40,291 bases of DNA from Escherichia phage ZG49, in the sequence record NC_047777.1, one strand, 5' to 3'. Position numbers and translations under genes: made by a program. Of this stretch, positions 6,175 to 37,477 are shown piece after piece (position 1 is the first letter of the stretch; each line of letters starts with the position of its first letter). The notes under the pieces are model-generated. The model saw only the letters and a program-made list of their open reading frames with translations, was not told the DNA's origin and made no database searches.

Positions 6175-6182
6175 TTAGACTC

Positions 6183-6209
6183 AAGGTCATGACTCAAAGT
6201 CGTGGCCTT
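6183..6209 (+). promoter_or_regulatory. RNA hairpin (12-bp stem with G-U pairs, 3-nt loop); candidate RNase III processing site (R1.1-like)
   Basis: AAGGUCAUGACU / AGUCGUGGCCUU pair fully; motif AGACTCAAGGTCAT...GTGGCCTT..ATGATTA recurs at 13549 and 37381. Confidence 0.5.
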
Positions 6210-6246
6210 CATGATTAACCTAACTCATTCAATCAGGAGCTACACC

Positions 6247-6426
6247 ATGTATCAGAACACTATCAACTTCGAGCGCATCCGTGAACGTCAGCAGACTGAA
6301 GACTACATTCCGAAGGGCCGCAAGCTGAACAAGACCAAGCGTGGCGGTGGTGTCAAGGGTGCTTTCCGTAACGCTGAAGGCAAAGACTCTCTGGTCAACC
6401 GAGAGAAGTATTTCATAGGAGCGTAA
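6247..6426 (+). CDS. gp1.1-like small basic protein
   Basis: KGRKLNKTKR motif as in T7 gp1.1 (from memory); AGGAG RBS 7 nt upstream of ATG 6247. Confidence 0.5.
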   Translation: MYQNTINFERIRERQQTEDYIPKGRKLNKTKRGGGVKGAFRNAEGKDSLVNREKYFIGA

Positions 6427-6429
6427 GCC

Positions 6430-6681
6430 ATGAGTGAACGTTGGTTATTCGACGCATCCACGAGCCAGTGGTCAGCGGTAGGCCGGACTCACCGCGCGAT
6501 GAGTGAGGCAGGACTTGATGTCCTAATGGATTACTCGCCGTGCCCCGGAAAAACTCTGGTCAGAGTAATTGAAGCAGATGGTGGGAGGCTTCTGGTCTCC
6601 AGAGAATTTACCGAAGATGAAATCTTTAGCTGTGAGCAATGGTGCTTACAACAATTGAACGATTATAGGAGCTGGAAATAA
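6430..6681 (+). CDS. gp1.2-like protein (dGTPase inhibitor family)
   Basis: 83 aa versus T7 gp1.2 85 aa; similar C-terminal end (DYRSWK versus DQLKDWK); conserved position. Confidence 0.5.
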   Translation: MSERWLFDASTSQWSAVGRTHRAMSEAGLDVLMDYSPCPGKTLVRVIEADGGRLLVSREFTEDEIFSCEQWCLQQLNDYRSWK

Positions 6682-7736
6682 TGACTACGACTATTAAAAC
6701 TAACCCGCACCGCGCTGTAGATTACTCTGAGTCAGGAGTTACGAAAGCACTGGCAGCAGCCGGGTCGCTGGAAGCTGAAGTGAAGTATGATGGTGTGCGG
6801 CTGAACCTCCCGGTCTTCCCTACTGGTGAGACTCAATGGTTGAGCCGTGAGTCTAAACCTCTCCCAGCCCTTGAGTGGCTGTCAGTCCTTACCAACATCG
6901 ACAACATCGTCGGGGACCAGCAAAAAGCTAGCGACTGGCGGTGGTTCCTGAAGCAGGCTGGCTACGAAGGCACTGGTCTGATGATTGACGGTGAGGTCAT
7001 GGTAAAAGGAATGGACTTCAATACGTCTTCAGGTCTCATCCGAACGAAGTGGGTAAAGCAAAAGAACTTTGAGTTTTCAACTGGTGAGCACTGGGGTAAG
7101 GACTGGACGAAAGAGAAGCTACCATTCTGTCTGGACCAGAGGTTCATCAAGGTGGTCGTCTACGGTGTAGTGGACCTTAACGTCATCCTTGACCCGAAAG
7201 CCGAAGGTCCTATCCATAGCGTCACACGCCTGAAGGCCGAAGCTATCGTCCCTCTCCTCCAGAAATACTCCCCTGAAATCGACTGGGTTCTGTCTGAGTC
7301 ACACACGGTCTATGACCTTGAGTCGCTCAGCTCCCTGTACGAAGAGAAGCGGCTGGAAGGACATGAGGGTCTGGTAGTCAAGGACCCACTGGGTAAATAC
7401 AAGCGTGGCAAGAAGTCAGGCATGTGGAAGATGAAGCCAAGCGAAGAGGCAGACGGTCACGTTGTGCGCCCTGTGTGGGGTACGGATGGGTTAGCCAACG
7501 AAGGCATGGTCATCGGATTTGACGTTATGCTTGAGAACGGGATGGAGGTCTCCGCAACTAACATTAGTCGCGCCCTTATGTCCGAGTTCACGGAGAATGT
7601 TAAGTCAGACCCTGACTACTACAAGGGGTGGGCTTGCCAGATTACCTACATGGAGGAGACACCAGATGGCTCATTGCGACACCCCTCGTTCGACCAGTGG
7701 CGTGGAACTGAGGATAACCCGACCATTAAGAGCTAA
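6681..7736 (+). CDS. ATP-dependent DNA ligase (gp1.3-like)
   Basis: Adenylation motif KYDGVR; 351 aa versus T7 ligase 359 aa; conserved position. Confidence 0.9.
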   Translation: MTTTIKTNPHRAVDYSESGVTKALAAAGSLEAEVKYDGVRLNLPVFPTGETQWLSRESKPLPALEWLSVLTNIDNIVGDQQKASDWRWFLKQAGYEGTGLMIDGEVMVKGMDFNTSSGLIRTKWVKQKNFEFSTGEHWGKDWTKEKLPFCLDQRFIKVVVYGVVDLNVILDPKAEGPIHSVTRLKAEAIVPLLQKYSPEIDWVLSESHTVYDLESLSSLYEEKRLEGHEGLVVKDPLGKYKRGKKSGMWKMKPSEEADGHVVRPVWGTDGLANEGMVIGFDVMLENGMEVSATNISRALMSEFTENVKSDPDYYKGWACQITYMEETPDGSLRHPSFDQWRGTEDNPTIKS

Positions 7737-7745
7737 CTAAATGTC

Positions 7746-7783
7746 AACCCAGTGGTCTTAGGACTGCTGGGTTTCTTTGCTTG
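7746..7783 (+). terminator. Candidate intrinsic terminator (TE-like) after the ligase gene
   Basis: 7-bp stem AACCCAG/CTGGGTT followed by TTTCTTTGCTT; T7 places its early terminator after gene 1.3. Confidence 0.45.
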
Positions 7784-7820
7784 TGCTAGCAAGCTATCGT
7801 CTGGGCCACAAGCCTGACCC

Positions 7821-7838
7821 TAAGCTATCACTATAGGA
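7821..7838 (+). promoter_or_regulatory. Phage RNAP promoter TAAGCTATCACTATAGGA
   Basis: One mismatch to consensus; intergenic. Confidence 0.65.
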
Positions 7839-7867
7839 CAACCATAACTCGACCTAAGGAGGCCGAC

Positions 7868-8122
7868 ATGTTTAAGAACTTAATGTTCAATCGTTATACC
7901 AGTACATTCCACCTGTCTCACAACCCATTAGCTTGCATTAAGCGCAACGAGAAGCTGGGCTACTTCGGGAAGGCCGTTAAGCTGTCACCTACAGTCTTCG
8001 CTCTGATTACTCCGGGCAAAGCTGAAGAGGCTCGCCAGAAGCGTGCGACCCACGTACCTGTGGTCTACACTAAGTGGCCTCGAGTTCGTCTGTTCGTTGA
8101 GTTCGTGAAGGAGGTGTTCTGA
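7868..8122 (+). CDS. gp1.6-like hypothetical protein (84 aa)
   Basis: RBS AAGGAGG; position between ligase and gp1.7. Confidence 0.5.
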   Translation: MFKNLMFNRYTSTFHLSHNPLACIKRNEKLGYFGKAVKLSPTVFALITPGKAEEARQKRATHVPVVYTKWPRVRLFVEFVKEVF

Positions 8123-8854
8123 TGGGATGTATAGCTTGCTTAGAGAAACCAGAGGTAACTCCTACAGATGACCAACCTTCCACTGAGTCAATCGACGCTG
8201 TCCGCAAGCCGTCCCACTATCAGGTATTTGACGGAGTGGAGTCCATTGAGATTATCGCTCGGTCCATGACTGTCAGCGAGTTCCGTGGGTTCTGCATGGG
8301 TAACGTCCTGAAGTATCGACTCCGAGCTGGTAAGAAGTCCGAGCTGGCTACTATGGAGAAGGACCTGAACAAAGCGGACTTCTATCAGGAGCTGTTCGAC
8401 CTGAGCTGGGCTACTTCGGGAAGGCCGTTAAGCTGTCACCTACAGTCTTCGCTCTGATTACTCCGGGCAAAGCTGAAGAGGCTCGCCAGAAGCGTGCGAC
8501 CCACGTACCTGTGGTCTACACTAAGTGGCCTCGAGTTCGTCTGTTCGTTGAGTTCGTGAAGGAGGTGTTCTGATGGGATGTATAGCTTGCTTAGAGAAAC
8601 CAGAGGTAACTCCTACAGATGACCAACCTTCCACTGAGTCAATCGACGCTGTCCGCAAGCCGTCCCACTATCAGGTATTTGACGGAGTGGAGTCCATTGA
8701 GATTATCGCTCGGTCCATGACTGTCAGCGAGTTCCGTGGGTTCTGCATGGGTAACGTCCTGAAGTATCGACTCCGAGCTGGTAAGAAGTCCGAGCTGGCT
8801 ACTATGGAGAAGGACCTGAACAAAGCGGACTTCTATCAGGAGCTGTTCGACCTG
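7953..8854. repeat. Tandem duplication B: two identical 451-bp copies (7953-8403, 8404-8854)
   Basis: Direct reading; ORFs 8122-8457 and 8573-8881 share their first 94 aa. Confidence 0.9.
8122..8457 (+). pseudogene. Chimeric gp1.7 copy created by duplication B (native C-terminus replaced by out-of-frame gp1.6 sequence)
   Basis: Identical to 8573-8881 until ...QELFDL, then diverges at the duplication junction. Confidence 0.6.
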
Positions 8855-8881
8855 CACAAAGGTAAGTGTTATGACGTATGA
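8573..8881 (+). CDS. gp1.7-like protein (nucleotide kinase family), 102 aa
   Basis: GCIACLEK...KPEVTPTDDQPS...IARSMTV...KYRLRAGKKSELA...KADFY resembles the T7 gp1.7 C-terminal half (from memory). Confidence 0.65.
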   Translation: MGCIACLEKPEVTPTDDQPSTESIDAVRKPSHYQVFDGVESIEIIARSMTVSEFRGFCMGNVLKYRLRAGKKSELATMEKDLNKADFYQELFDLHKGKCYDV

Positions 8882-8910
8882 AGAACTTAAAGCTGTAATG
8901 GTGAACCGAT

Positions 8911-9009
8911 ATGCTTAAACCGAGTGAGTGGTGCCGGGAGATGTACGAGAAGACTCTCAACCCGGACTACATTACGTTATACAACCAATGGAAGGAGCGT
9001 GGTCTATGA
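8911..9009 (+). CDS. Small ORF (32 aa), gp1.8-like position
   Basis: ATG at 8911, ends overlapping the gp2 start; no motif. Confidence 0.25.
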
Positions 9010-9164
9010 CTGACGTAGAGAAGAAATACATCGTTGAGCTTGAGGGTCGCGTTCAGTCCTTCGAGGTTCCGGTGTACGCAAAGTCTCTTGAAGAGGCTAC
9101 ACTGAAGTCCCAAGAGTATGAGGACGCTGGGTTTGTGGTCGGACGGATTCGTCCTGAGACCTAA
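9006..9164 (+). CDS. gp2-like inhibitor of host RNA polymerase (52 aa)
   Basis: [14 protein letters not shown]...[10 protein letters not shown] versus T7 gp2 SFEVPIYAETLDEA...AGFEVTRVRP; RBS AAGGAG before ATG 9006. Confidence 0.7.
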
Positions 9165-9179
9165 ACTATCACTGTAGGA
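9162..9179 (+). promoter_or_regulatory. Phage RNAP promoter variant TAAACTATCACTGTAGGA (phi2.5-like position)
   Basis: One mismatch (-3 G) to consensus. Confidence 0.5.
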
Positions 9180-9221
9180 CAGACGTCCAGTTCGTAACTT
9201 TAAAATAGGAGATTTACACCG

Positions 9222-9920
9222 ATGGCTAAAGAGCAACTGAAGACTTTCACCACTCCGGTAGCTGGTATCGTTGAGCCTTACGCATGGCTGAACAAAGCAG
9301 ACACCAAGTTTAACGAGCGTGGTGAGCATAAGGTTAACCTGACATTCGACCTGAGCAACCCGAAGGTCCGTAAGATGATTGATGTCTTACAGAAGATTCA
9401 CGACGATGCGTATGCGAAAGCACTTGCAGACCACGAGAAGAACCCACCTCAGGTTCAGCGTGGCAAGAAGCCTATTGAACCACGAGAAGGCGACATGCCG
9501 TGGATTGAGAATGGTGACGGTACTGTTACCATGAAGTTTAAATGCTTCGCGTCTTACCTGAAGGATGGTAAGTCTGAGCCTATCATATTACGGTTCTACG
9601 ACACCGATGCTAAGTTAATCCGTGACGTCCCGAATATTGGCGCTGGCTCAAAGCTGAAGGTCAAGTTTAAAGTCCTGCCGTTTAAGTGGAACGCTGCGAC
9701 TGGTGCAAGCGTTAAGCTACAGCTTGAGTCCTGCCTTCTGGTAGAACTGAAGGAGTGGAAAGGCGATGGTGCTGGTGGCGATGGTGGTTGGGGTGATGAT
9801 GAAGACCTCGGTACTGGCTACAAAGCGTCAACCGATGGTGACTTCGGGTCTGATGACTTCGGTGACGATGGTTCCGAAGGTGGTGACGACTCCAACTCTG
9901 GTGGCGATTACGACTTCTAA
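9222..9920 (+). CDS. Single-stranded DNA-binding protein (gp2.5-like, 232 aa)
   Basis: Same length as T7 gp2.5; acidic Gly/Asp-rich C-terminal tail ending in aromatic F (GGDYDF). Confidence 0.9.
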   Translation: MAKEQLKTFTTPVAGIVEPYAWLNKADTKFNERGEHKVNLTFDLSNPKVRKMIDVLQKIHDDAYAKALADHEKNPPQVQRGKKPIEPREGDMPWIENGDGTVTMKFKCFASYLKDGKSEPIILRFYDTDAKLIRDVPNIGAGSKLKVKFKVLPFKWNAATGASVKLQLESCLLVELKEWKGDGAGGDGGWGDDEDLGTGYKASTDGDFGSDDFGDDGSEGGDDSNSGGDYDF

Positions 9921-9976
9921 TGAAACTTAAAGAGAAACTAGAGGCTTACTCTGAGGTTTCTCCTGGTGGATGTAGT

Positions 9977-10426
9977 ATGAGTAGAGGACATCAAGTAGGT
10001 GCTTATCGCTCTGGACTCGAAGCAAAGAACCAAGAGTGGCTTGAGAAGAATGGCGTAAAAGCTGAATACGAAGCATATAAAATAGGCTACGTAGTACCAT
10101 CCAGCGACCACTTCTACACACCAGATTTTATCCTTCCTAACGGTATCATCGTGGAGACCAAAGGTCTCTTCGATAGTGATGACCGTAAGAAGCACCTTCT
10201 GGTACGAGAACAGCACCCTGAGTTAGACATTCGGTTCGTGTTCTCAAGTTCACGCTCCAAGTTATACAAGGGGTCTCCGACCACGTATGGCGCATGGTGC
10301 GAAAAGAACGGCTTTAAGTTTGCCGACAAGTTTATCCCGGTTGAGTGGCTGAGAGAGGTGACTGTACGTCTACCTTCAGGTATTCTCATCCCCAAGAAGA
10401 AAGGAGTTAAGGATATTCGCACCTAA
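9977..10426 (+). CDS. Endonuclease I (gp3-like Holliday junction resolvase, 149 aa from ATG 9977)
   Basis: Strong similarity to T7 gp3 (GAYRSGLE, YTPDF, PNGI.VETKGL..SDDRKKHLL.REQHPELDIR.VFSSSR.KLYKGSPT); track ORF starts earlier at 9920. Confidence 0.85.
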   Translation: MSRGHQVGAYRSGLEAKNQEWLEKNGVKAEYEAYKIGYVVPSSDHFYTPDFILPNGIIVETKGLFDSDDRKKHLLVREQHPELDIRFVFSSSRSKLYKGSPTTYGAWCEKNGFKFADKFIPVEWLREVTVRLPSGILIPKKKGVKDIRT

Positions 10427-11009
10427 AGCGAGACCCTTAAGTTTATGGCTGAAAAATACTCAGTAAGTGAGACAACCATAAGTCGAATCAGGAACAACAA
10501 GAGGTGGAAATAATAATGGGAAGTAAAGTACAATTCATGCCACGCAAGTCAACTGACGCTATCTTCGTTCACTGTTCGGCTACCAAGCCAGAGATGGACA
10601 TCGGGGTAGAGACCATCCGTATGGTGTTCTCAAGTTCACGCTCCAAGTTATACAAGGGGTCTCCGACCACGTATGGCGCATGGTGCGAAAAGAACGGCTT
10701 TAAGTTTGCCGACAAGTTTATCCCGGTTGAGTGGCTGAGAGAGGTGACTGTACGTCTACCTTCAGGTATTCTCATCCCCAAGAAGAAAGGAGTTAAGGAT
10801 ATTCGCACCTAAAGCGAGACCCTTAAGTTTATGGCTGAAAAATACTCAGTAAGTGAGACAACCATAAGTCGAATCAGGAACAACAAGAGGTGGAAATAAT
10901 AATGGGAAGTAAAGTACAATTCATGCCACGCAAGTCAACTGACGCTATCTTCGTTCACTGTTCGGCTACCAAGCCAGAGATGGACATCGGGGTAGAGACC
11001 ATCCGTATG
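10238..11009. repeat. Tandem duplication C: two identical 386-bp copies (10238-10623, 10624-11009)
   Basis: Direct reading; ORF 10504-10812 has the lysozyme N-terminus fused to the endonuclease I C-terminus. Confidence 0.9.
10504..10812 (+). pseudogene. Chimeric ORF: lysozyme N-terminal 40 aa fused to endonuclease I C-terminal 62 aa
   Basis: N-terminus identical to 10890-11360 and C-terminus identical to 9920-10426; switch at the duplication junction. Confidence 0.6.
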
Positions 11010-11360
11010 TGGCACAAGCAACAAGGCTGGCTGGACGTAGGCTACCACTTTATCATCAAGCGAGATGGCACTGTGGAAGAGGGTCGCCCGGTCAATGTCG
11101 TAGGGTCACACGTTAAGGACTGGAACTCAAAGTCCGTAGGCGTCTGCCTTGTAGGTGGAATTGACGCTAAGGGCAAGTTTGAAGCTAACTTCACTCCGGC
11201 CCAGATGAACTCCCTGCGCAACAAGCTGGCTGACCTGAAGGCCCTGTATCCTCAGGCAGAAATAAAAGCACACCATGATGTAGCACCTAAGGCGTGTCCA
11301 AGTTTCGACTTGCAACGCTGGCTGTCTACCGATGAACTGGTCACTTCCGACCGTGGTTAA
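10902..11360 (+). CDS. Lysozyme / N-acetylmuramoyl-L-alanine amidase (gp3.5-like)
   Basis: Strong similarity to T7 lysozyme (STDAIFVHCSATKP, WLDVGYHFIIKRDGTVE, HH..APKACPSFD, ELVTSDRG); ATG 10902 after GAGGTGGA. Confidence 0.9.
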   Translation: MGSKVQFMPRKSTDAIFVHCSATKPEMDIGVETIRMWHKQQGWLDVGYHFIIKRDGTVEEGRPVNVVGSHVKDWNSKSVGVCLVGGIDAKGKFEANFTPAQMNSLRNKLADLKALYPQAEIKAHHDVAPKACPSFDLQRWLSTDELVTSDRG

Positions 11361-11384
11361 TAAACTCTAAAGGAGAACAACTCA

Positions 11385-11585
11385 ATGATTAAACTTATTG
11401 AATTTCTTGGTCGTCTGGTGGTGCGTGGTTATCGTCGTGCTGCGGTTATGGAACGAAAGGTAGAAAAGAAGACTGCTGACAGTGCGGCTGATGCTGCTGC
11501 TCTGGCTGACAAGCTGACCATCGCGTCACTGGAAGCTGGAATGAAGGCACGTCAAGCTGACACCAAAGCTGACCAGTTGGCTTAG
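11385..11585 (+). CDS. Hypothetical protein (66 aa)
   Basis: ORF with GGAG RBS; no motif recognised. Confidence 0.4.
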   Translation: MIKLIEFLGRLVVRGYRRAAVMERKVEKKTADSAADAAALADKLTIASLEAGMKARQADTKADQLA

Positions 11586-11597
11586 TTCTTCAAAGAC

Positions 11598-11616
11598 TAA
11601 ACTATCACCTTAGGGA
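11598..11616 (+). promoter_or_regulatory. Degenerate phage promoter-like site TAAACTATCACCTTAGGGA upstream of gene 4
   Basis: Two mismatches in the -4/-3 core; position matches T7 phi3.8. Confidence 0.3.
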
Positions 11617-11665
11617 TGGGACCATGAGTCCTTTCCCTTTGTTCGCATTTGTGATTAAGGAGTGA

Positions 11666-13369
<1,704 letters not shown>

Positions 13370-13380
13370 GGAGGAGTACA

Positions 13381-13545
13381 TTGCTAAGAAAACTTAAAGC
13401 TCGCTACCATCGGTTCATGTACAAATGGTGGAGTGATGAAGCAACCTGCCTGTCCAACATTCTGGGAGACCAGAGGTTCGACTCTAAGGCATGGAAGAAA
13501 GCTAACCGGAAGTTTATGTATCACTTCTTGCGTACAGACTTCTAG
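13381..13545 (+). CDS. Small basic ORF (about 54 aa), gp4.3/4.5-like position; start uncertain
   Basis: TTG at 13381 with RBS AAGGAGGA; in frame with track ORF 13348-13545. Confidence 0.25.
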
Positions 13546-13555
13546 GTCTAGACTC

Positions 13556-13580
13556 AAGGTCATTCACATCGAGTGGCCTT
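13556..13580 (+). promoter_or_regulatory. RNA hairpin (10-bp stem, 5-nt loop); candidate RNase III site (R4.7-like)
   Basis: AAGGUCAUUC / GAGUGGCCUU; same flanking motif as 6183 and 37388. Confidence 0.45.
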
Positions 13581-13608
13581 TATGATTAGACTAAACGGAG
13601 GATTAACC

Positions 13609-15780
13609 ATGTTTGACCTTAAGAGTATCTGGGGTTCTGACATAGAGACCAACGGTCTCCTTGATACAGTCTCCCAGTTTCACTGTGGGGTCCTGATTAA
13701 CGCCGAGTCGAATGAGACCCTTAAGTATGGGGTAGCTCCGATGGTCGGTATCGTCGGTGGCTTCAAAGAGTATGTACAGAAGGTGGAAGAGATTGCCGCA
13801 TCACCTGATGGTATGCTGGTATTCCACAACGGTATCAACTATGACGTACCTGCTATTGACAAGCTGAAACGTCTGTACTTTGGGAAACGTTTCAACTTCC
13901 CGAAACACAAGATGATTGATACCTTGGTGCTGGGCCGCTTGATGTATCCCAACATTAAGTTCTCAGACATGGGAGCAGTGAAAGCTGGTCGTCTGCCACC
14001 TAAGATGATGGGACGCCAGTCTCTTGAGGCTTGGGGCTATCGTCTCGGTGAGATGAAAGGTGAGTACAAACACGATTACGTTGCCAAGTGCAAGGCTGAA
14101 GGTATCGAATATAAGGCTGGGGACGAATGGTTGTTCCCATCTCAGGAGATGCTAGACTATAACGTTCAAGACGTTGTGGTCACACTGGCGTTGTTCAAGA
14201 AGTTCCTGACTGACAAGTATTACTTCCAGTCTGAACAGTTTGCTTTCGACCAGATTTATGCGTTGCGTCTGGAACATGATGCTGCGTGGACCTGTGCGAA
14301 GATGGAACGTAACGGCTATCCGATGAACACCGAGATGGTCGAAGGTTTATATCGTGAACTCACCGTCAAACGTGCAGAGCTGTTGGACAAGCTGCGTTCG
14401 ACTTTCGGTAGCTGGTATGCACCAAAGGGAGGCAAGGAGTTCTTCAAGCACCCACGGACAGGCAAGGACCTTCCGAAGTATCCGCGAGTCGTGTATCCTA
14501 AGGTCGGGTCAGTATTCAAGAAGCCGAAGAACAAAGCTCAACGCTTAGGTCTGGAGCCTTGCGAGTTAGACTCACGAGACACGATGGAAGGAGCACCGTT
14601 CACGCCAATCACTTACGTTGAGTTTAATCCGGGAAGCGGAGACCACTTAGCGAAAGTCTTGATGGAGCGTGGTTGGGAGCCTGTGGACTTCACTGACACT
14701 GGGAAACCTGTAGTCGATGACGAGACGTTAGAACACGTTAAGCTACCAGACGCAGAGGCTCAGGCTTGCGTAGAGCTGGTCCGTGAGTATCTGGTAGTCC
14801 AGAAGCGCATCGGTCAGGCGGCTGAAGGTAAGAACGCATGGTTGAAACTTGTAGGTCCAGACGGACGTATGCACGGTTCAATCAACCCATGCGGTGCAGT
14901 AACAGGACGTGCGACTCATAGTTCACCAAACATGGCTCAGGTCCCTGCTAACGGTGCTCCGTATGGTGAGATTTGCCGTGGTGCTTTCGGTGCAGCTTGG
15001 AACAAGACGGATGGTAAGCCAGACCCTTGGATTCAAGTGGGTGTGGATGCTTCAGGTCTTGAGCTTCGTTGTCTGGGGAACCGAGCAGCTCCGTTTGATG
15101 GTGGTGCCTATGCGAAGACTGTGGTCGAAGGTGACATCCACTGGGCCAACGCAGTAAACGCTGGGTTAGCACCTAATGTCCCACGAGATAAGTTGAACCA
15201 CGACCATGATGCTTTCCGTAACAACGCTAAGACGTTCATCTATGCGTTCCTGTATGGTGCAGGGGCCGCTAAGATTGGACTGATAGTCGGCGGTGGTAAG
15301 AAGGAAGGTTCAGCTCTCATGAAGAAATTCATTGAGGGTACACCAGCCATCAAGGACCTCAGGGAAGCTGTGAGTAAGACGTTAATCTCAGACTCTAAGT
15401 GGGTGGACGGAGAGAACATCGTTAAGTGGAAACGCCGTTGGTTGCGTGGACTTGATGGTCGCCGTATCCACATCCGGTCTCCGCACTCAGCACTGAACGC
15501 CTTACTTCAAGGTGACGGTGCGGTAGTTTGTAAAACGTGGTTCACTTGGCTTGAGAGGAACCTAGAAGCTAAAGGCTACGTGCATGGCTGGGATGGTGAC
15601 TTTGCGATTATGGCTTTTGTCCATGACGAAGTTCAGGTTGCCGCAAGGACTATGGAAATAGCTGAGGACATAGTTAGGGTGGCGCAGTCCACAATGCGAG
15701 AGGTTGGAGAGTTCTACCAGTTCAAGTGTGTGCTTGACACCGAGGGTAAGATAGGACCTACGTGGCGCGAATGTCACTAA
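13609..15780 (+). CDS. DNA polymerase (gp5-like, family A) with thioredoxin-binding loop
   Basis: Colinear similarity to T7 DNAP including the thioredoxin-binding insert (TFGSWY.PKGG.E.F.HPRTGK.LPKYPR...PKVG..FKKPKNKAQR); ATG 13609 after GGAGG. Confidence 0.95.
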   Translation: MFDLKSIWGSDIETNGLLDTVSQFHCGVLINAESNETLKYGVAPMVGIVGGFKEYVQKVEEIAASPDGMLVFHNGINYDVPAIDKLKRLYFGKRFNFPKHKMIDTLVLGRLMYPNIKFSDMGAVKAGRLPPKMMGRQSLEAWGYRLGEMKGEYKHDYVAKCKAEGIEYKAGDEWLFPSQEMLDYNVQDVVVTLALFKKFLTDKYYFQSEQFAFDQIYALRLEHDAAWTCAKMERNGYPMNTEMVEGLYRELTVKRAELLDKLRSTFGSWYAPKGGKEFFKHPRTGKDLPKYPRVVYPKVGSVFKKPKNKAQRLGLEPCELDSRDTMEGAPFTPITYVEFNPGSGDHLAKVLMERGWEPVDFTDTGKPVVDDETLEHVKLPDAEAQACVELVREYLVVQKRIGQAAEGKNAWLKLVGPDGRMHGSINPCGAVTGRATHSSPNMAQVPANGAPYGEICRGAFGAAWNKTDGKPDPWIQVGVDASGLELRCLGNRAAPFDGGAYAKTVVEGDIHWANAVNAGLAPNVPRDKLNHDHDAFRNNAKTFIYAFLYGAGAAKIGLIVGGGKKEGSALMKKFIEGTPAIKDLREAVSKTLISDSKWVDGENIVKWKRRWLRGLDGRRIHIRSPHSALNALLQGDGAVVCKTWFTWLERNLEAKGYVHGWDGDFAIMAFVHDEVQVAARTMEIAEDIVRVAQSTMREVGEFYQFKCVLDTEGKIGPTWRECH

Positions 15781-16947: not shown

Positions 16948-17803
16948 GAAGATAGCTCTGGTTCTGGATGGTGACTATCTGGTCTTCTCTTCTATGGCTG
17001 CTGCCGAGGACGAGACAGACTGGGGTGATGACATCTGGACCCTTATCTGCGACCACGCCAAGGCTCGTCGTATCCTTGAGAACACCATCGCTGAAATCGT
17101 TAAGAAGCGCAAGGCGTGGAAAGACGCTAAGATTGTGATGTGCTTCACCGACGATTACAACTGGCGTAAGGACGTTCTGCCAACCTATAAGGCCAACCGT
17201 AAAGGTTCCCGCAAGCCTGTAGGTTACAAGAAGTTCGTAGCCGAAGTGATGGCTGACCCACGGTTCAACAGCTTCCTGCGTCCTACGCTTGAAGGTGATG
17301 ACTGTATGGGTATCATCGGGACCCGACCTCAGATTGTTGACTGTGATCATGCGGTTCTGGTGTCCTGTGACAAGGACTTCAAGACCATCCCGAACTGTGA
17401 GTTCTTCTGGTTAACCACTGGTGAAATCCTGAGTCATACGACTGCTGAGGCAGACTATTGGCACATGGAGCAGACCATCAAGGGTGACACTACAGATGGC
17501 TATGGTGGTATTCCGGGGATGGGTGAGGACACCACTCGTGCGTTCCTTGACGAGCCGTACTACTTCGTGCAGGAGAGCCGTGAGCTTAAGACTGGCAAGA
17601 ACAAAGGCCAGATTAAGACCGAATGGAAGAAGTATCCGAAGCGTGAAGACATGACGCTGTGGGACTGCATGGTTACACTGGCTGCTAAGGCTGGCATGAC
17701 CGAGGAGGAACTTCTGGTCCAAGCTCAGGTCGCTCGTATTTGTCGAGCATCTGACTATGACCCTAAGTCCAAGGAGGTCATCCTATGGACACCACCCATG
17801 TAA
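16934..17803 (+). CDS. 5'-3' exonuclease (gp6-like)
   Basis: 289 aa versus T7 gp6 300 aa; conserved position; RBS AGGAGG. Confidence 0.85.
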   Translation: MTSNKKIALVLDGDYLVFSSMAAAEDETDWGDDIWTLICDHAKARRILENTIAEIVKKRKAWKDAKIVMCFTDDYNWRKDVLPTYKANRKGSRKPVGYKKFVAEVMADPRFNSFLRPTLEGDDCMGIIGTRPQIVDCDHAVLVSCDKDFKTIPNCEFFWLTTGEILSHTTAEADYWHMEQTIKGDTTDGYGGIPGMGEDTTRAFLDEPYYFVQESRELKTGKNKGQIKTEWKKYPKREDMTLWDCMVTLAAKAGMTEEELLVQAQVARICRASDYDPKSKEVILWTPPM

Positions 17804-17877: not shown

Positions 17878-17931
17878 GTCTAGCCGATAGTCATATCCTA
17901 TCAATCCAACAGTCATCCATAGGTGAAACAC

Positions 17932-17950
17932 TAAACTATCACTATAGGGA
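17932..17950 (+). promoter_or_regulatory. Phage RNAP promoter TAAACTATCACTATAGGGA (phi6.5-like)
   Basis: Exact consensus; intergenic. Confidence 0.7.
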
Positions 17951-23770: not shown

Positions 23771-26127
23771 TGCCACTAATTACTCAATCAATCAAGAACC
23801 TTAAGGGTGGCATTAGCCAACAGCCTGACATACTGAGGTTCTCAGACCAAGGCGAGTCACAGGTTAACTGCTGGTCATCAGAGAGTGATGGCCTCCAGAA
23901 GCGTCCACCTACAGTCTTCAAGCGACGTCTTAACATCGACGTTGGGAGCAACCCTAAGTTCCACCTGATTAACCGTGATGAGCATGAGCAGTATTACATC
24001 GTGTTCAATGGGTCCAACATTCAGGTAGTTGACTTGAGTGGTAATCAATACTCAGTGTCCGGTGCGGTAGATTACGTTAAGTCCTCCAACCCACGAGATG
24101 ACATCCGTGTCGTTACCGTGGCAGACTATACGTTCGTCGTTAACCGTAAGGTTGTCGTCAAAGGTGGAAGCGAGAAGTCACACTCTGGTTATAACCGCAA
24201 AGCACGAGCTTTAATTAACCTGCGTGGTGGGCAGTATGGTCGAACCCTTAAGGTGGGAATCAACGGTGGCGTCAAGGTCTCGCATAAGCTACCAGCAGGT
24301 AATGATGCCGAGAATGACCCACCTAAGGTGGACGCTCAAGCCATTGGTGCAGCTCTGAGAGACCTTCTTGTTCAGTCCTATCCTGACTTCACGTTTGACC
24401 TTGGGTCTGGCTTCCTGCTAATCACAGCTCCTTCAGGGACCGACATTAACTCAGTGGAGACGGAGGATGGCTACGCTAACCAGCTAATAAGCCCAGTCCT
24501 AGACACTGTGCAGACAATCTCTAAACTACCTCTTGCCGCTCCTAATGGGTATATCATTAAGATTCAAGGTGAAACAAACAGTAGCGCCGATGAATACTAC
24601 GTGATGTATGACTCCAACACTAAGACGTGGAAGGAGACAGTGGAGCCGGGAGTTGTCACTGGGTTCGATAACACCACAATGCCACACGCTCTGGTACGAC
24701 AATCTGATGGCTCCTTTGAGTTCAAGACTCTGGATTGGTCCAAGCGTGGTGCTGGTAACGATGACACAAACCCTATGCCTAGCTTCGTGGATGCTGCGAT
24801 TAATGATGTGTTCTTCTACAGGAACAGGCTAGGGTTCTTGTCGGGTGAGAACGTAATCATGAGCCGTTCAGCCAGCTACTTTGCGTTCTTCCCTAAGAGT
24901 GTGGCGACACTGAGTGATGGTGACCCTATTGATGTAGCTGTAAGTCACCCTCGAATCTCAATCCTTAAGTATGCCGTTCCGTTTAGTGAGCAGCTACTAC
25001 TTTGGTCGGATGAGGTTCAGTTCGTGATGACAAGCTCTGGGGTCCTTACCTCGAAGTCTATCCAGCTTGATGTAGGCTCAGAGTTTGCCTTAGGTGATAA
25101 TGCCAGACCGTTCGCTGTAGGACGCTCAGTCTTCTTCTCAGCTCCTCGTGGGTCATTCACCAGCATTAAGCGATACTTCGCTGTAGCTGATGTGTCTGAT
25201 GTGAAGGATGCTGATGATACAACCGGTCACGTATTGTCCTACATCCCTAACGGGGTGTTTGATATTCAAGGTACAGGGACTGAGAACTACATCTGCGTCA
25301 ACTCTACAGGTGCATACAACCGTATCTACATCTACAAGTTCTTGTTTAAGGACGGCGTACAGCTTCAAGCCTCTTGGTCACACTGGGAGTTCCCTAAAGA
25401 TGATAAGATTCTGGCGTCTGCTTCTATTGGCTCTACCATGTTCATCGTTCGTCAGCATCAAGGAGGGGTAGACATTGAGCACCTTAAGTTCATCAAGGAG
25501 GCAACTGACTTCCCGTCAGAGCCATATAGACTACACATTGACTCCAAGGTGTCTATGGTAATTCCAATTGGCTCATATAATGCTGACACCTATAAGACTA
25601 CGGTTGACATTGGTGCTGCTTATGGTGGCAACGCTCCGTCTCCCGGTCGGTACTATCTGATTGACAGTCAGGGTGCGTATGTGGACCTTGGGGACTTGAC
25701 CAGTATCTCTACTGTGATTACCCTCAACGGCGATTGGTCAGGACGTACAGTGTTCATCGGACGGCCCTATCTGATGTCCTACAAGTTCTCACGGTTCCTG
25801 ATTAAGATTGAAGATGATAGGGGCACTCAGTCTGAAGACACTGGTCGTCTACAGCTTCGTCGGGCTTGGGTAAACTACAAGGACACTGGCGCTCTGAGAC
25901 TCATTGTCAGAAACGGTGAGCGGGAGTTCGTGAACACCTTTAACGGGTACACCCTTGGTCAGCAAACCATCGGGACTACAAACATCGGTGACGGGCAGTA
26001 TCGCTTCGCTATGAATGGTAACGCATTAACCACGAGTCTAACCTTAGAGTCCGACTATCCTACCCCAGTGTCAATCGTTGGTTGTGGCTGGGAGGCGTCA
26101 TACGCTAAGAAAGCTCGTTCCGTTTAA
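23770..26127 (+). CDS. Tail tubular protein B (gp12-like)
   Basis: 785 aa versus T7 gp12 794 aa; conserved position; start overlaps gp11 stop. Confidence 0.9.
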   Translation: MPLITQSIKNLKGGISQQPDILRFSDQGESQVNCWSSESDGLQKRPPTVFKRRLNIDVGSNPKFHLINRDEHEQYYIVFNGSNIQVVDLSGNQYSVSGAVDYVKSSNPRDDIRVVTVADYTFVVNRKVVVKGGSEKSHSGYNRKARALINLRGGQYGRTLKVGINGGVKVSHKLPAGNDAENDPPKVDAQAIGAALRDLLVQSYPDFTFDLGSGFLLITAPSGTDINSVETEDGYANQLISPVLDTVQTISKLPLAAPNGYIIKIQGETNSSADEYYVMYDSNTKTWKETVEPGVVTGFDNTTMPHALVRQSDGSFEFKTLDWSKRGAGNDDTNPMPSFVDAAINDVFFYRNRLGFLSGENVIMSRSASYFAFFPKSVATLSDGDPIDVAVSHPRISILKYAVPFSEQLLLWSDEVQFVMTSSGVLTSKSIQLDVGSEFALGDNARPFAVGRSVFFSAPRGSFTSIKRYFAVADVSDVKDADDTTGHVLSYIPNGVFDIQGTGTENYICVNSTGAYNRIYIYKFLFKDGVQLQASWSHWEFPKDDKILASASIGSTMFIVRQHQGGVDIEHLKFIKEATDFPSEPYRLHIDSKVSMVIPIGSYNADTYKTTVDIGAAYGGNAPSPGRYYLIDSQGAYVDLGDLTSISTVITLNGDWSGRTVFIGRPYLMSYKFSRFLIKIEDDRGTQSEDTGRLQLRRAWVNYKDTGALRLIVRNGEREFVNTFNGYTLGQQTIGTTNIGDGQYRFAMNGNALTTSLTLESDYPTPVSIVGCGWEASYAKKARSV

Positions 26128-26154
26128 CTTATTGAATGGCCTATAGATTTACCT

Positions 26155-26173
26155 TAACTATCACTATAGGGAC
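26155..26173 (+). promoter_or_regulatory. Phage RNAP promoter TTAACTATCACTATAGGGA (phi13-like)
   Basis: Consensus match; intergenic. Confidence 0.7.
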
Positions 26174-26213
26174 TATAGGCCCTTTAAGTTATAATACTTT
26201 AATAGGAGACTTT

Positions 26214-33576: not shown

Positions 33577-35637
33577 ATGTCCACGATTACACAATTCCCT
33601 TCAGGAAACACTCAGTACAGGATTGAGTTCGACTACCTAGCCAGAACGTTTGTTGTTGTTACGCTGGTGAATAGCTCTAACCCTACCCTGAACCGTGTAC
33701 TGGAAGTTGGTCGAGATTACCGATTCCTTAACCCAACGATGATTGAGATGTTGGTTGACCAATCAGGTTTCGACATCGTTCGTATTCACCGTCAGACTGG
33801 AACTGACTTAGTGGTAGACTTCAGGAATGGCTCAGTGTTGACAGCTAGTGACCTGACCAATTCAGAGCTTCAGGCTATCCATATTGCAGAAGAAGGTCGA
33901 GACCAAACGGTTGACTTAGCGAAGGAATATGCCGATGCTGCTGGTAGCTCTGCTGGCAACGCTAAGGATAGCGAGGACGAAGCACGCCGAATCGCTGCGA
34001 GTATCAGGGAAGCTGGTCTAATTGGCTATATTACCCGTCGCTCCTTCGAGAAAGGCTACAACGTTACAACATGGAGCGAGGTCCTGCTATGGGAAGAGGA
34101 TGGTGATTATTACCGCTGGGATGGTACGCTTCCAAAGAACGTTCCTGCTGGTTCAACTCCTGAAACTTCCGGTGGGATTGGATTAGGTGCGTGGGTTAGT
34201 GTTGGTGATGCTGCTTTAAGAAGTCAGATTTCAAACCCGGAAGGGGCAATACTCTACCCGGAATTGCAGATGGCAAGATGGCGTGATGAGGGTGATGTTC
34301 GAGGCTGGGGTGCTAAAGGGGATGGTGTAACAGATAGTACGGAGAATATAGCTGCTTCACTAAATTCTCAAAAAGCTGTCGTAGCATCAGAAGGTGTATT
34401 CTCTAGTTCTGGTATTAATAGTAATTACTGTAACTTAGACGGTAGAGGCAGTGGTGTACTAAGTCACCGTTCAAGTACAGGTAACTACTTAGTATTTAAC
34501 AATCTACGCTCAGGTCGCTTAAGTAATATTACGGTAGAAAGTAATAAGGCGACCGATACCACTCAAGGGCAGCAGGTATCTCTTGCTGGTGGCAGTGATG
34601 TTACTATAAGTGATGTTAATTTCTCAAACGTTAAGGGCGCTGGTTTCAGTTTAATCACATACCCTAATGATGCACCCTCTGATGGGCTTATGATTAAAGG
34701 CATTCGAGGTAGCTACTCCGGCTATGCTACTAATAAGGCGGCTGGATGCATACTTGCTGATTCCTCAGTTAACTCCCTCATAAATAACGTCATTGCTAAG
34801 AACTACCCTCAGTTCGGGGCTGTAGAACTGAAAGGTACAGCCAGTTATAACATAGTCAGCAATGTTATAGGGGCAGACTGCCAGCATGTAACTTACAACG
34901 GTACAGAAGGGTCAATAGCTCCCTCTAACAACCTTATCAATGGGGTAGTGGCTAATAATCCTAAATATGCAGCGGTTGTTGCAGGCAAAGGTAGTACCAA
35001 CTTAATCTCCGATGTGCTTGTAGATTTCTCAACCTCTGATGCTAGGCAGGCTCATGGTGTTACAGTAGAAGGTTCTGATAACGTCATAAATAATGTGCTT
35101 ATGTCAGGGTGTGATGGTACTAACTCTTTAGGGCAAGCTCAGACTGCTACAATTGCGCGCTTTATAGATACGGCTAATAACAACTATGCGTCTGTATTTC
35201 CTAGCTACAGTGCTACAGGTGTTATTACTTTCGAATCAGGTTCTACCCGTAACTTCGTAGAGGTAAAGCATCCGGGAAGGAGAAACGACCTTCTCAGTGC
35301 TACTGGTACTATTGAAGGTAAAGTTACTATTGACGGCACTAGTAATAGCAACGTAGTGCACGCTCCTGCATTAGGACAGTACATAGGCAGTATGTCCGGT
35401 AGGTTCGAATGGCGGATTAAGTCCATGTCACTTCCGTCAGGCGTTCTTACCTCGGCTGATAAGTACAGAATGCTTGGGGATGGTGCTGTGTCATTAGCTG
35501 TAGGTGGGGGTACTTCTTCTCAAGTTCGCCTATTTACTTCTGATGGTACTTATCGGACAGTATCACTCACCAACGGTAACGTGCGTCTTCCTACCAGTAG
35601 CACAGGTTATTTGCAGTTAGGTTCTAGCTCCCTCTAA
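33577..35637 (+). CDS. Tailspike (gp17-like), N-terminal 686-aa fragment truncated by tandem duplication D
   Basis: N-terminal 150 aa resemble the T7 gp17 adaptor domain (EFDYLARTFVVVTL, DYRF, VDFRNGSVL.ASDL, IAEEGRD); then a beta-helix-like region (WGAKGDGVTD); reading frame breaks at the duplication junction at 35625. Confidence 0.8.
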   Translation: MSTITQFPSGNTQYRIEFDYLARTFVVVTLVNSSNPTLNRVLEVGRDYRFLNPTMIEMLVDQSGFDIVRIHRQTGTDLVVDFRNGSVLTASDLTNSELQAIHIAEEGRDQTVDLAKEYADAAGSSAGNAKDSEDEARRIAASIREAGLIGYITRRSFEKGYNVTTWSEVLLWEEDGDYYRWDGTLPKNVPAGSTPETSGGIGLGAWVSVGDAALRSQISNPEGAILYPELQMARWRDEGDVRGWGAKGDGVTDSTENIAASLNSQKAVVASEGVFSSSGINSNYCNLDGRGSGVLSHRSSTGNYLVFNNLRSGRLSNITVESNKATDTTQGQQVSLAGGSDVTISDVNFSNVKGAGFSLITYPNDAPSDGLMIKGIRGSYSGYATNKAAGCILADSSVNSLINNVIAKNYPQFGAVELKGTASYNIVSNVIGADCQHVTYNGTEGSIAPSNNLINGVVANNPKYAAVVAGKGSTNLISDVLVDFSTSDARQAHGVTVEGSDNVINNVLMSGCDGTNSLGQAQTATIARFIDTANNNYASVFPSYSATGVITFESGSTRNFVEVKHPGRRNDLLSATGTIEGKVTIDGTSNSNVVHAPALGQYIGSMSGRFEWRIKSMSLPSGVLTSADKYRMLGDGAVSLAVGGGTSSQVRLFTSDGTYRTVSLTNGNVRLPTSSTGYLQLGSSSL

Positions 35638-36333
35638 CAACCTTATCAATGGGGTAGTGGCTAATAATCCTAAATATGCAGCGGTTGTTGCAGGCAAAGG
35701 TAGTACCAACTTAATCTCCGATGTGCTTGTAGATTTCTCAACCTCTGATGCTAGGCAGGCTCATGGTGTTACAGTAGAAGGTTCTGATAACGTCATAAAT
35801 AATGTGCTTATGTCAGGGTGTGATGGTACTAACTCTTTAGGGCAAGCTCAGACTGCTACAATTGCGCGCTTTATAGATACGGCTAATAACAACTATGCGT
35901 CTGTATTTCCTAGCTACAGTGCTACAGGTGTTATTACTTTCGAATCAGGTTCTACCCGTAACTTCGTAGAGGTAAAGCATCCGGGAAGGAGAAACGACCT
36001 TCTCAGTGCTACTGGTACTATTGAAGGTAAAGTTACTATTGACGGCACTAGTAATAGCAACGTAGTGCACGCTCCTGCATTAGGACAGTACATAGGCAGT
36101 ATGTCCGGTAGGTTCGAATGGCGGATTAAGTCCATGTCACTTCCGTCAGGCGTTCTTACCTCGGCTGATAAGTACAGAATGCTTGGGGATGGTGCTGTGT
36201 CATTAGCTGTAGGTGGGGGTACTTCTTCTCAAGTTCGCCTATTTACTTCTGATGGTACTTATCGGACAGTATCACTCACCAACGGTAACGTGCGTCTTCC
36301 TACCAGTAGCACAGGTTATTTGCAGTTAGGTTC
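34916..36333. repeat. Tandem duplication D: two identical 709-bp copies (34916-35624, 35625-36333) inside the tailspike gene
   Basis: Direct reading; ORFs 33577-35637 and 35657-36817 share about 230 identical residues. Confidence 0.9.
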
Positions 36334-36817
36334 CAATGCAATGACCCCAGATAGTACTAATACATACGCATTAGGTTCCGCAAGTCGAGCATGGTCTGGC
36401 GGTTTTACTCAATCAGCATTCACTGTTGTCTCAGATGCTAGGGATAAAACAGAGCCTCTTAATATCTCAGATGCTTTACTGGATGCTTGGTCTGAAGTTG
36501 ACTTTGTGCAGTTTCAGTACTTGGACCGAATTGAGGAGAAGGGTGCAGACTCAGCTAGATGGCACTTCGGCATCATCGCTCAGCGAGCTACGGAGGCCTT
36601 CGAACGTCACGGTATAGATGCACATCGCTATGGCTTCCTGTGCTTCGACAGTTGGGATGATGTGTACGAGGAAGATGCCAATGGCTCTCGTAAACTGATT
36701 ACACCAGCAGGTTCCCGCTATGGTATTCGTTACGAGGAAGTACTGATATTAGAGGCTGCGTTGATGCGGCGTACTATTAAGCGTATGCAGGAAGCATTAG
36801 CTGTTATGTCTAAGTGA
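35657..36817 (+). CDS. Tailspike C-terminal fragment (386 aa) including an intramolecular-chaperone-like domain
   Basis: C-terminus GSASRAWSGGFTQSAFTVVSDARDKTEP... resembles peptidase S74-type chaperone domains of phage tailspikes; begins at an internal Met created by the duplication. Confidence 0.65.
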   Translation: MANNPKYAAVVAGKGSTNLISDVLVDFSTSDARQAHGVTVEGSDNVINNVLMSGCDGTNSLGQAQTATIARFIDTANNNYASVFPSYSATGVITFESGSTRNFVEVKHPGRRNDLLSATGTIEGKVTIDGTSNSNVVHAPALGQYIGSMSGRFEWRIKSMSLPSGVLTSADKYRMLGDGAVSLAVGGGTSSQVRLFTSDGTYRTVSLTNGNVRLPTSSTGYLQLGSNAMTPDSTNTYALGSASRAWSGGFTQSAFTVVSDARDKTEPLNISDALLDAWSEVDFVQFQYLDRIEEKGADSARWHFGIIAQRATEAFERHGIDAHRYGFLCFDSWDDVYEEDANGSRKLITPAGSRYGIRYEEVLILEAALMRRTIKRMQEALAVMSK

Positions 36818-36921
36818 GTAATACTGGTACGGTATTTTCGCACAATGAAATCGTTGAACACGCTAACCAACGTATGTAACAACTTTGGGTCACGGACGAC
36901 CCGCTTTAAACTGGAGGTTTT

Positions 36922-37116
36922 ATGATTGAGTTAGACTTCAAGAATGAGGTCCTTAAAGCCTCTCCTATCGTCGGGACCGCTGCGGCTGATGGTGCCAGTC
37001 GGTTCTTCTTCGGACTTACACTGAACGAATGGTTCTACGTTGCAGCTATCGCGTACACCGTTGTCCAGATTGGTGTGCTAGTCTACAAAACGATTAAAGG
37101 AGGTGGTAAAACATGA
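36922..37116 (+). CDS. Holin (gp17.5-like, 64 aa)
   Basis: Single hydrophobic segment FYVAAIAYTVVQIGVLVY; position between tail fiber and terminase small subunit; RBS GGAGG. Confidence 0.65.
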   Translation: MIELDFKNEVLKASPIVGTAAADGASRFFFGLTLNEWFYVAAIAYTVVQIGVLVYKTIKGGGKT

Positions 37117-37376
37117 CGCAGATGGACTTAGAGAAGTTCCTCTTGATGCTTGATACTGAACGTGCTCGACTCATGCTGCAAGACCTGCGGGATGACACTA
37201 AGCGTTCACCTCAGCTCTACAACGCCATTGAGAAGCTGCTTGCTCGTCACAACTTTGTGTTAAGCAAGGTGTCCGTGGACGAGAAGACTCTGGCTGATAT
37301 GGAGGCCCTGAACGCAGAGTACGATAAGGTGCTTTCAGTGACTGAGGATAATGACACCGGGTATGGTGTTCAATAA
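37113..37376 (+). CDS. Terminase small subunit (gp18-like, 87 aa)
   Basis: Size and position (T7 gp18 89 aa); RBS AAGGAGGTGG. Confidence 0.7.
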   Translation: MTQMDLEKFLLMLDTERARLMLQDLRDDTKRSPQLYNAIEKLLARHNFVLSKVSVDEKTLADMEALNAEYDKVLSVTEDNDTGYGVQ

Positions 37377-37387
37377 GTGTTAGACTC

Positions 37388-37414
37388 AAGGTCATTACTA
37401 TATGTAGTGGCCTT
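37388..37414 (+). promoter_or_regulatory. RNA hairpin (10-bp stem); candidate RNase III site (R18.5-like)
   Basis: AAGGUCAUUA / UAGUGGCCUU; same flanking motif as 6183 and 13556. Confidence 0.45.
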
Positions 37415-37477
37415 TATGGTTAACACTAACTAGTGGAGGCGACTCTACGTGAAATCTGATAAACCGGGAGGACAACT

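Follow-up and report, generated by a model that had tools for sequence, protein, structure and literature searches.

Five hairpins in the K1F-like coliphage ZG49 as probable RNase III processing signals of the T7 group

The R1.1 site of phage T7 is the standard test substrate for E. coli RNase III. Dunn and Studier reportedly described in 1983 the T7 sites R0.3, R0.5, R1.1, R4.7 and R18.5, along with the exact T7 cleavage coordinates that are our basis for placing the predicted cuts given below. Ten RNase III processing sites are known in T7 mRNAs (PMC6938266; PMC4858673), and R1.1, a 60-nt RNA, has an internal loop that is asymmetric (4/5 nt) and one primary cut, used both in vivo and in vitro (PMC6121014). 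Internal loops limit RNase III to one cut, leaving a protective 3' hairpin (PMC1540722). Growth of T7 is possible without RNase III (PMC6938266), and thus the sites are probably not essential. The T7 records NC_001604 and V01146, as displayed, hold no RNase III features, and we therefore took the RefSeq annotation of T3 (NC_003298), which has ten sites from R0.3 to R18.5, as an independent reference. In RefSeq, the Kayfunavirus reference phages K1F and EcoDS1 have annotated promoters and terminators but no RNase III sites, and within the literature searched we found no paper naming both 'RNase III' and 'Kayfunavirus'.

The window analysed here is the complete 40,291-nucleotide genome of Escherichia phage ZG49 (NC_047777.1), a K1F-like coliphage of the T7 group (Kayfunavirus) whose genes all lie on the + strand. 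A preliminary description of this DNA reported three copies of a hairpin motif at positions matching T7 R1.1, R4.7 and R18.5, and proposed that they share a processing signal. All three copies are present, and the T3 RefSeq record annotates an 'RNase III recognition site' at each of these positions. However, two more consensus copies, both degenerate (2352-2418 and 1229-1301), had been overlooked, as had three non-consensus candidates (11612-11649, 17887-17974 and 26125-26191). We put the probability that the consensus hairpins are T7-group RNase III processing signals at roughly nine in ten, with cleavage deduced from their resemblance to known sites.

The sequence AGACTCAAGGTCAT occurs in exactly three exact copies, at 6177, 13550 and 37382, all on the + strand, and GTGGCCTTYATGRTTA is found exactly at 6202, 13573 and 37407. 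When up to three mismatches are allowed, AGACTCAAGGTCAT has 25 matches against 4.9 expected, a number reached in 0 of 100 shuffles. The internal loop is flanked by a conserved CUCAAGGUC...GUGGCCUUUAUGAUU, exact in the three copies and degenerate in the other two, and the fuller motif ACUCAAGGUC...GUGGCCUU(U/C)AUG(A/G)UUA is common to the three copies, to T7 R0.3, R0.5, R1.1, R4.7 and R18.5, and to the annotated T3 sites. The coordinates first reported were right within 1-2 nt, the corrected spans being 13550-13588 and 37382-37422 for the second and third copies.

In the predicted fold of each of these three copies, the upper stem is 10-11 bp long and carries two conserved G.U pairs; an asymmetric 4/5-nt internal loop separates it from a lower stem of 6-9 bp. 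The previously noted '10-12 bp stem' is therefore real, but it is the upper stem alone, with the lower stem beneath it. Fold prediction, which had been proposed as a check, gives a stable hairpin in every copy (-19.8 to -23.4 kcal/mol; z -3.5 to -4.5), with 0 of 200 shuffles equalling the observed stability.

Hairpin C, at the R1.1 position (6170-6222, + strand; -19.8 kcal/mol, z -4.5; 39.9 bits with the covariance model described below), carries the exact motif and comprises an 11-bp upper stem, an internal loop of ACUC/CAUGA and a lower stem, with a single cut predicted at 6212/6213. It follows the RNA polymerase gene and a phage RNA polymerase promoter and precedes the gene 1.1/1.2/ligase block. 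The promoter, CCTAAACTATCACTATAGG (6155-6175, + strand), matches the ACTATCACTATAGG family, whose eight exact members and three near-exact ones (1-2 mismatches) all lie on the + strand, and its start site falls within the 5' arm of the lower stem. T3 has the closest arrangement to that of ZG49: its phi1.1 promoter (5984-6006) likewise overlaps the 5' arm of R1.1 (6003-6053), its R4.7 directly precedes gene 5 and its R18.5 is flanked by genes 18 and 18.5. The corresponding ZG49 elements are hairpin D (13545-13592, + strand; -22.0 kcal/mol, z -3.5; 49.4 bits), directly upstream of the DNA polymerase gene with its ATG at 13609, and hairpin E (37376-37427, + strand; -23.4 kcal/mol, z -4.2; 55.5 bits), between gp18 (small terminase) and gp18.5 (Rz-like spanin). 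Their predicted cuts are at 13583/13584 and 37417/37418, respectively. Flanking genes were assigned by the open reading frame map and PHROG, and these assignments agree with the original placement of the copies after the RNA polymerase region, before the DNA polymerase gene and between gp18 and gp18.5.

The two additional consensus-class hairpins reside in the early region. Hairpin B (2356-2410, + strand; -24.8 kcal/mol, z -4.8; 39.9 bits, E 6e-7) is R0.5-like, carries a degenerate motif and has a predicted cut at 2398/2399. Hairpin A, a divergent member at the R0.3 position (1234-1292, + strand; 32.4 bits, E 4e-5; -22.9 kcal/mol, z -2.35), lies just upstream of the first early open reading frame, which starts at 1310, and its cut is predicted at 1281/1282. 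It is weaker than the other consensus hairpins in both score and fold (32 bits, z -2.35). The predicted cuts are all placed by analogy with T7, whose reported cleavage coordinates fall at one motif position across six T7 sites.

A covariance model trained on seven T7 sites only scores the three reported hairpins at 39.9-55.5 bits (E 6e-7 to 9e-11) and gives five + strand matches in the window (32-55 bits), whereas the next best match reaches 12.9 bits. The same model recovers T7 R6.5, which is outside its training set, and 8 of the 10 annotated RNase III sites of T3 with no extra matches. These scores, set against a background of at most 13 bits in the window, support the proposal of a shared processing signal, as do the T3 positions and the identity of hairpin D, whose upper stem and 4/5 internal loop equal those of T7 R1.1 letter for letter. 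A scan at Rfam gathering scores gave no match anywhere in the window, as would be expected if Rfam lacks a family for such phage processing signals. Three partial matches to the 5' motif in the window, at 855, 3092 and 21793, were rejected because they fold weakly (z -0.2, -2.1 and -2.0, respectively) and the model does not detect them; the one at 3092 lies at the R1 position, just after the promoter that precedes the RNA polymerase gene. No model match occurs at the R1 position in the window or in relatives.

Orthologous hairpins are widespread among relatives. K1F has them at the same positions, with six model matches that include 5562-5629, 12849-12914 and 36442-36509 and also matches before gene 0.3 equivalent to hairpin A, and EcoDS1 has orthologous matches at 6044-6111 and 13037-13101. 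The R1.1-position site is present in 23 of 23 Kayfunavirus loci, the R4.7-position site in 21 of 22 relatives and the R18.5-position site in 22 of 22; relatives also carry two to three early sites upstream of gene 1. No consensus matches were found in the loci of distant relatives (46-69% protein identity) or in Pseudomonas phage gh-1, where none of the 13 annotated 'putative' sites matches the consensus, and so this class seems confined to enterobacterial phages of the T7, T3 and K1F-like groups.

A model-independent alignment of the five copies in the window yields the same two-helix fold, with compensatory changes at 8 of 18 pairs. In a set of 62 distinct sequences, pairing holds in 94.9% of cells, and compensatory changes on both sides are seen at 14 of the 19 pairs (slid-register controls, 23-52% paired; 0 of 500 shuffles match the observed values), although this alignment was fitted to the covariance model and leans towards structure; the five-copy alignment agrees with it. 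The RNA structure of the consensus hairpins is maintained in evolution.

Alternatively, the hairpins could be structural RNA elements that protect 3' ends, modulate downstream translation or bind RNase III, all without cutting, and R1.1 variants that bind the enzyme yet resist cleavage are known (PMC1540722). In addition, the minimum-energy fold of the R4.7-position copy pairs 13539-13543 with the Shine-Dalgarno sequence at 13597-13601 in an outer helix. Relatives, among them L104 and EcoDS1, do not keep that pairing, and we dropped sequestration of the Shine-Dalgarno sequence as an explanation for this copy. Moreover, the upper stem and loop of this copy are exactly those of T7 R1.1, which is efficiently cleaved, and a hairpin acting at a 3' end needs an upstream event that creates the end, and no terminator follows the sites. 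We therefore regard uncut elements as quite improbable.

Even less probable is that the copies act as DNA, whether in protein binding, replication or recombination, or that they are a dispersed repeat which duplication has spread. The motif is indeed a dispersed repeat with nearly identical copies. However, every copy is oriented with transcription, and compensatory changes keep the stems paired even as the sequences of the loops and lower stem diverge. In addition, the pairing depends on conserved G.U wobbles, and on the other strand these become C-A mismatches. The fold is strand-specific because of these pairs, and the minus strand of the window scores only 11-13 bits against 40-55 bits for the reported hairpins. 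Finally, intrinsic terminators or attenuators, which like the consensus hairpins would be stable, intergenic and on the coding strand, are hardly credible here, since none of the five is detected by a terminator scan that does find the true early-region terminator at 7746-7773, no U tract follows any of them, and hairpin C lies immediately downstream of a promoter.

RNase III processing signals remain our preferred reading, and from the likeness to T7 we infer that the enzyme cleaves them, at which phosphodiester bond it does so, and how this affects translation and RNA stability. Each site would be read through as part of a long polycistronic transcript, synthesised by the host polymerase in the early region and by the phage polymerase over the remainder. 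The RNA would form about two helical turns, with the asymmetric internal loop of 4/5 nt breaking them. This structure would be bound by E. coli RNase III, which, owing to the internal loop, would cut one strand only, 3' of the loop, at CCUU(U/C)AU|G(A/G)UUA. The upstream message would thereby acquire a new 3' end protected by the stable hairpin, and the downstream message would start a few dozen nucleotides before its own ribosome-binding site.

The upper stem and internal loop are near-invariant in sequence, both among paralogous sites and between T7, T3 and K1F-like phages, and their two G.U wobbles stay wobbles in 56 or more of the 62 distinct sequences. It is conceivable, but in our view unlikely, that this sequence serves more than RNase III recognition; it might also be bound by another factor, from host or phage, or take part in gene conversion that keeps the copies alike.

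Three non-consensus candidate hairpins, in part with weaker support, occupy the R3.8, R6.5 and R13 positions and are undetected by the T7-only consensus model in the window. A stem is present at all three, with similarity to T7 sequence limited to the R3.8-like site. This short hairpin (11612-11649, + strand) lies upstream of the primase/helicase gene, is followed by CCCTTTGTTCGCATT and is built from the first transcribed bases of a promoter. It has CCCTTT|GTTCGCATT as in T7 R3.8, and its position is that of the annotated T3 R3.8, in the leader before gene 4. Its fold is modest (z -2.0), and its inner stem covaries in relatives (GGGAC/GUCC to GAGAC/GUCU). The R6.5-like candidate (17887-17974, + strand; z -3.0) is an 11-bp long-range stem of 17887-17897 with 17964-17974 that encloses the promoter upstream of gene 6.5, as T3 R6.5 (17135-17206) encloses phi6.5, and relatives show three independent compensatory double changes in it. 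The R13-like candidate (26125-26191, + strand; -20.3 kcal/mol, z -3.4) has a 9-bp stem of GGCCUAUAG/CUAUAGGCC, separated by an internal loop from a lower stem of 6 bp; it encloses the promoter upstream of gene 13, and T3 R13 is likewise annotated as overlapping phi13. Different complementary arms (GTCCCCTAT/ATAGGGGAC; GTCTCCCT/AGGGAGAC) stand at the R13 position in other relatives and in T3 and T7, and both the R6.5-like and the R13-like stems differ in sequence from those of T3. Against the ten annotated sites of T3, ZG49 has five consensus sites and three candidates.

ZG49 and T7 are alike in the conserved sequence, in the succession of upper stem, 4/5 internal loop and lower stem, and in the strand, intergenic placement and gene neighbourhoods of the sites. 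They differ in terminal loops and lower-stem sequences, in the lack of gene 4.7 in ZG49, where the 'R4.7' site consequently abuts gene 5, and in the lack of a consensus site at the R1 or R1.3 position. A further difference concerns the gp0.7 kinase of T7, a stimulator of RNase III: early open reading frames in the window are all 175 amino acids or shorter, leaving no apparent gp0.7, and the protein is absent from the K1F and EcoDS1 annotation. The K1F-like group seems to do without this kinase, and the efficiency of RNase III processing may thus differ from that in T7.

RNase III sites of the T7/T3 type are already known biology, so that the finding is correct but ordinary, and the ZG49 sites open no new biological question. 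The main value of the finding is for annotation, in that a simple model built from T7 sites yields five in the window and six in K1F, with similar numbers in relatives. K1F-like phages are specific for K1 and K5 capsules, and RNase III sites help to define mRNA boundaries for phage transcriptomes and engineering.

All three copies of the conserved hairpin motif listed in the preliminary description are exact, and each is predicted to fold. The 14-mer AGACTCAAGGTCAT is found on the plus strand at positions 6177, 13550 and 37382 (hairpins C, D and E, respectively), accompanied on the same strand by the partner motif GTGGCCTTYATGRTTA at 6202, 13573 and 37407, and the counts of both far exceed shuffle expectation. 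RNA fold prediction returns a hairpin for each copy, with energies of -19.8, -22.0 and -23.4 kcal/mol and z-scores of -4.5, -3.5 and -4.2. In this structure, an internal loop with 4 nt (ACUC) on one side and 5 nt ((U/C)AUG(A/G)) on the other separates an upper stem of 10-11 base pairs, two of which are G.U, from a lower stem of 6-9 base pairs whose sequence varies among the copies while complementarity is kept.

The same motif, ACTCAAGGTC...GTGGCCTTTAT|GATT, is present around the RNase III sites of T7, with site coordinates after Dunn and Studier (1983). T7 R1.1 reads ACTC-AAGGTCATTC-GCAA-GAGTGGCCTT-TATGA and hairpin D reads ACTC-AAGGTCATTC-ACATC-GAGTGGCCTT-TATGA, such that the terminal loop is the sole difference across the compared segment. 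Because hairpin D otherwise matches R1.1, it is improbable that these hairpins are structural RNAs that remain uncleaved. A role at the DNA level is unlikely because the conserved G.U pairs make the pairing strand-specific, and intrinsic terminators are excluded because the hairpins carry no U tract and a terminator scan flags none of them.

As a test beyond mere resemblance, seven T7 sites were aligned, a consensus fold was derived, and a covariance model built from T7 alone was used to search the ZG49 genome with filters off. Five matches were recovered, all on the plus strand: hairpin E (37370-37437, 55.5 bits), hairpin D (13538-13602, 49.4 bits), hairpin C (6165-6232, 39.9 bits), and two early-region sites that render the original count of three incomplete, namely hairpin B (2352-2418, 39.9 bits) and hairpin A (1229-1301, 32.4 bits, E 4e-5). 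Beyond these, the best match in the genome reaches 12.9 bits, and the real sites give 11-13 bits when scored on the reverse strand. The model also picks up T7 R6.5, which was outside the training set, and recovers eight of the ten stem-loops labelled 'RNase III recognition site' in the T3 RefSeq record and nothing else. It gives zero matches in Pseudomonas phage gh-1, and finds no consensus site at the R1 or R1.3 position in ZG49.

The proposed correspondence of the three copies to the gene positions of R1.1, R4.7 and R18.5 holds, and the T3 layout is the best match. The promoter phi1.1 of T3 (5984-6006) runs into the beginning of R1.1 (6003-6053), and ZG49 shows the same overlap between its promoter at 6155-6175 and hairpin C. 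Likewise, T3 R4.7 (12970-13018) is immediately followed by gene 5 (13043) and hairpin D by the polymerase gene, whose ATG is at 13609, and both T3 R18.5 and hairpin E lie between genes 18 and 18.5. A strong intrinsic early terminator (7746-7773), made up of a 12-bp stem and a T-rich tail, directly follows the ligase gene, in agreement with the position of the early terminator TE in T7, T3 and EcoDS1. Hairpins A, B and C are upstream of this element and thus inside the host-polymerase transcription unit, as are the early sites of T7 (PMC4858673).

The large ORFs of ZG49 are all on the plus strand in T7 order, and PHROG-identified neighbours of the reported sites are RNA polymerase, the gene 1.1-position ORF, the gene 1.2 dGTPase inhibitor, ligase, primase/helicase, DNA polymerase, small terminase and an Rz-like spanin. 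The phage promoter core ACTATCACTATAGG is found at 11 plus-strand places (8 exact, 3 with 1-2 mismatches). A megablast search with positions 5000-15000 matched 301 phage records; Escherichia Kayfunavirus genomes were the top matches, with 92-96% identity.

Relatives' loci were retrieved from IMG/VR via neighbouring proteins. Of the Kayfunavirus-type loci, 22 of 22 carry the R18.5-position site, 23 of 23 the R1.1-position site, and 21 of 22 the R4.7-position site; relatives also have two or three early sites ahead of gene 1. The exception is the close relative L100 (IMGVR_UViG_2757321099_000001): at 480-700, just ahead of its DNA polymerase gene, it has another coding sequence in place of the expected hairpin, which suggests that a gene was inserted at this junction. 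In an alignment of 77 matches (62 distinct sequences) fitted to the model, 94.9% of cells are paired, versus 23-52% in slid-register controls, and compensatory changes occur in 14 of 19 pairs. The covariation score is 0.366 versus 0.128 for shuffles, none of 500 of which reaches the observed value. Plain MAFFT/RNAalifold analysis of the five ZG49 copies also recovers the two-helix structure, and 8 of its 18 pairs show compensatory changes. In many relatives (loci L103 and L112-L121), a phage promoter (TAAGCTATCACTGTAGG) directly abuts the 5' side of the R4.7-position hairpin, whose lower-stem arm it provides; ZG49 (13520-13550), K1F and EcoDS1 lack that promoter, and a different 5' arm, GGTCTAG, pairs instead.

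Three promoter-associated candidates, with weaker support, are probably also sites. An R3.8-like candidate (11612-11649) resides, as in T3, in the helicase gene leader and shares CCCTTTGTTCGCATT with T7 R3.8; its fold is modest (z -2.0) and its inner stem covaries among relatives. An R6.5-like candidate pairs 17887-17897 with 17964-17974 as an 11-bp stem (z -3.0) around the gene 6.5 promoter, just as T3 R6.5 encloses phi6.5. Three independent double changes among relatives preserve its pairing (AUAUC/GAUAU to AUAAC/GUUAU, CAUAU/AUAUG to CUUAU/AUAAG, and UCAUAU/AUAUGA to UCCUAU/AUAGGA). In an R13-like candidate (26125-26191, z -3.4), the gene 13 promoter is enclosed by a 9-bp stem and, across an internal loop, a 6-bp lower stem, and in other phages the arms at this position differ in sequence and are still complementary.

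Several other features of this genome were observed. Positions 1-401 and 39891-40291 form an exact 401-bp direct repeat, versus an annotated 178-bp terminal repeat in EcoDS1, and therefore the genome looks complete, with ends that may include assembly overlap. The non-coding left end holds, at 700-793 and ahead of the early genes, about five tandem copies of a 15-nt unit (AGTCCTACAACCTAC). There are also four tandem duplications in head-to-tail arrangement, 385-709 bp long and 99-100% identical: 1519-1903 ~ 1904-2289, 7953-8403 = 8404-8854, 10228-10613 ~ 10614-10999, and 34916-35624 = 35625-36333. The last, a 709-bp duplication within a K5-lyase-type tailspike gene, is absent from relatives (2301 nt of the query correspond to 1592 nt in their records), appears to be either an assembly artefact or a duplication of very recent origin, and would disrupt ORFs 33577..35637 and 35657..36817. 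Finally, an exact phage promoter (3080-3093) lies directly upstream of the RNA polymerase gene (start 3167), which would let the phage polymerase transcribe its own gene. EcoDS1 is annotated similarly (promoter 2244-2266, gene 1 at 2336), whereas in T7 and T3 the sole promoter at this place is an E. coli one. The leader that follows opens with GGACTCAAGGTC, but carries no convincing RNase III-type hairpin by folding or by the covariance model.

Such elements have belonged to textbook T7/T3 biology since the 1970s-80s, in sequence and in position alike. The sole new point is one of bookkeeping, in that RNase III sites are unannotated in the K1F and EcoDS1 RefSeq records, and our literature search found no paper naming RNase III along with Kayfunavirus.

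We infer that hairpins A (1234..1292), B (2356..2410), C, D and E would undergo T7-like RNase III processing, with cuts predicted between nucleotides 1281 and 1282, 2398 and 2399, 6212 and 6213, 13583 and 13584, and 37417 and 37418, as placed by homology from the T7 coordinates. In T7, polycistronic early and late transcripts are processed at ten sites by E. coli RNase III (PMC4858673; PMC6938266), and in R1.1, with its asymmetric 4/5 internal loop, one primary cut is used in vivo (PMC6121014). RNase III substrates are approximately two helical turns long; the internal loop holds cleavage to one phosphodiester, and the remaining 3' hairpin protects against 3'-5' exonucleases (PMC1540722). The gp0.7 kinase raises RNase III activity during T7 infection (PMC4858673), whereas none is apparent in the phage group of ZG49: no ORF in the early region (1310-3167) is long enough, the largest being 174 aa, and the K1F and EcoDS1 annotations include no such kinase. 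The kinase-mediated stimulation of RNase III known from T7 probably does not apply in ZG49.
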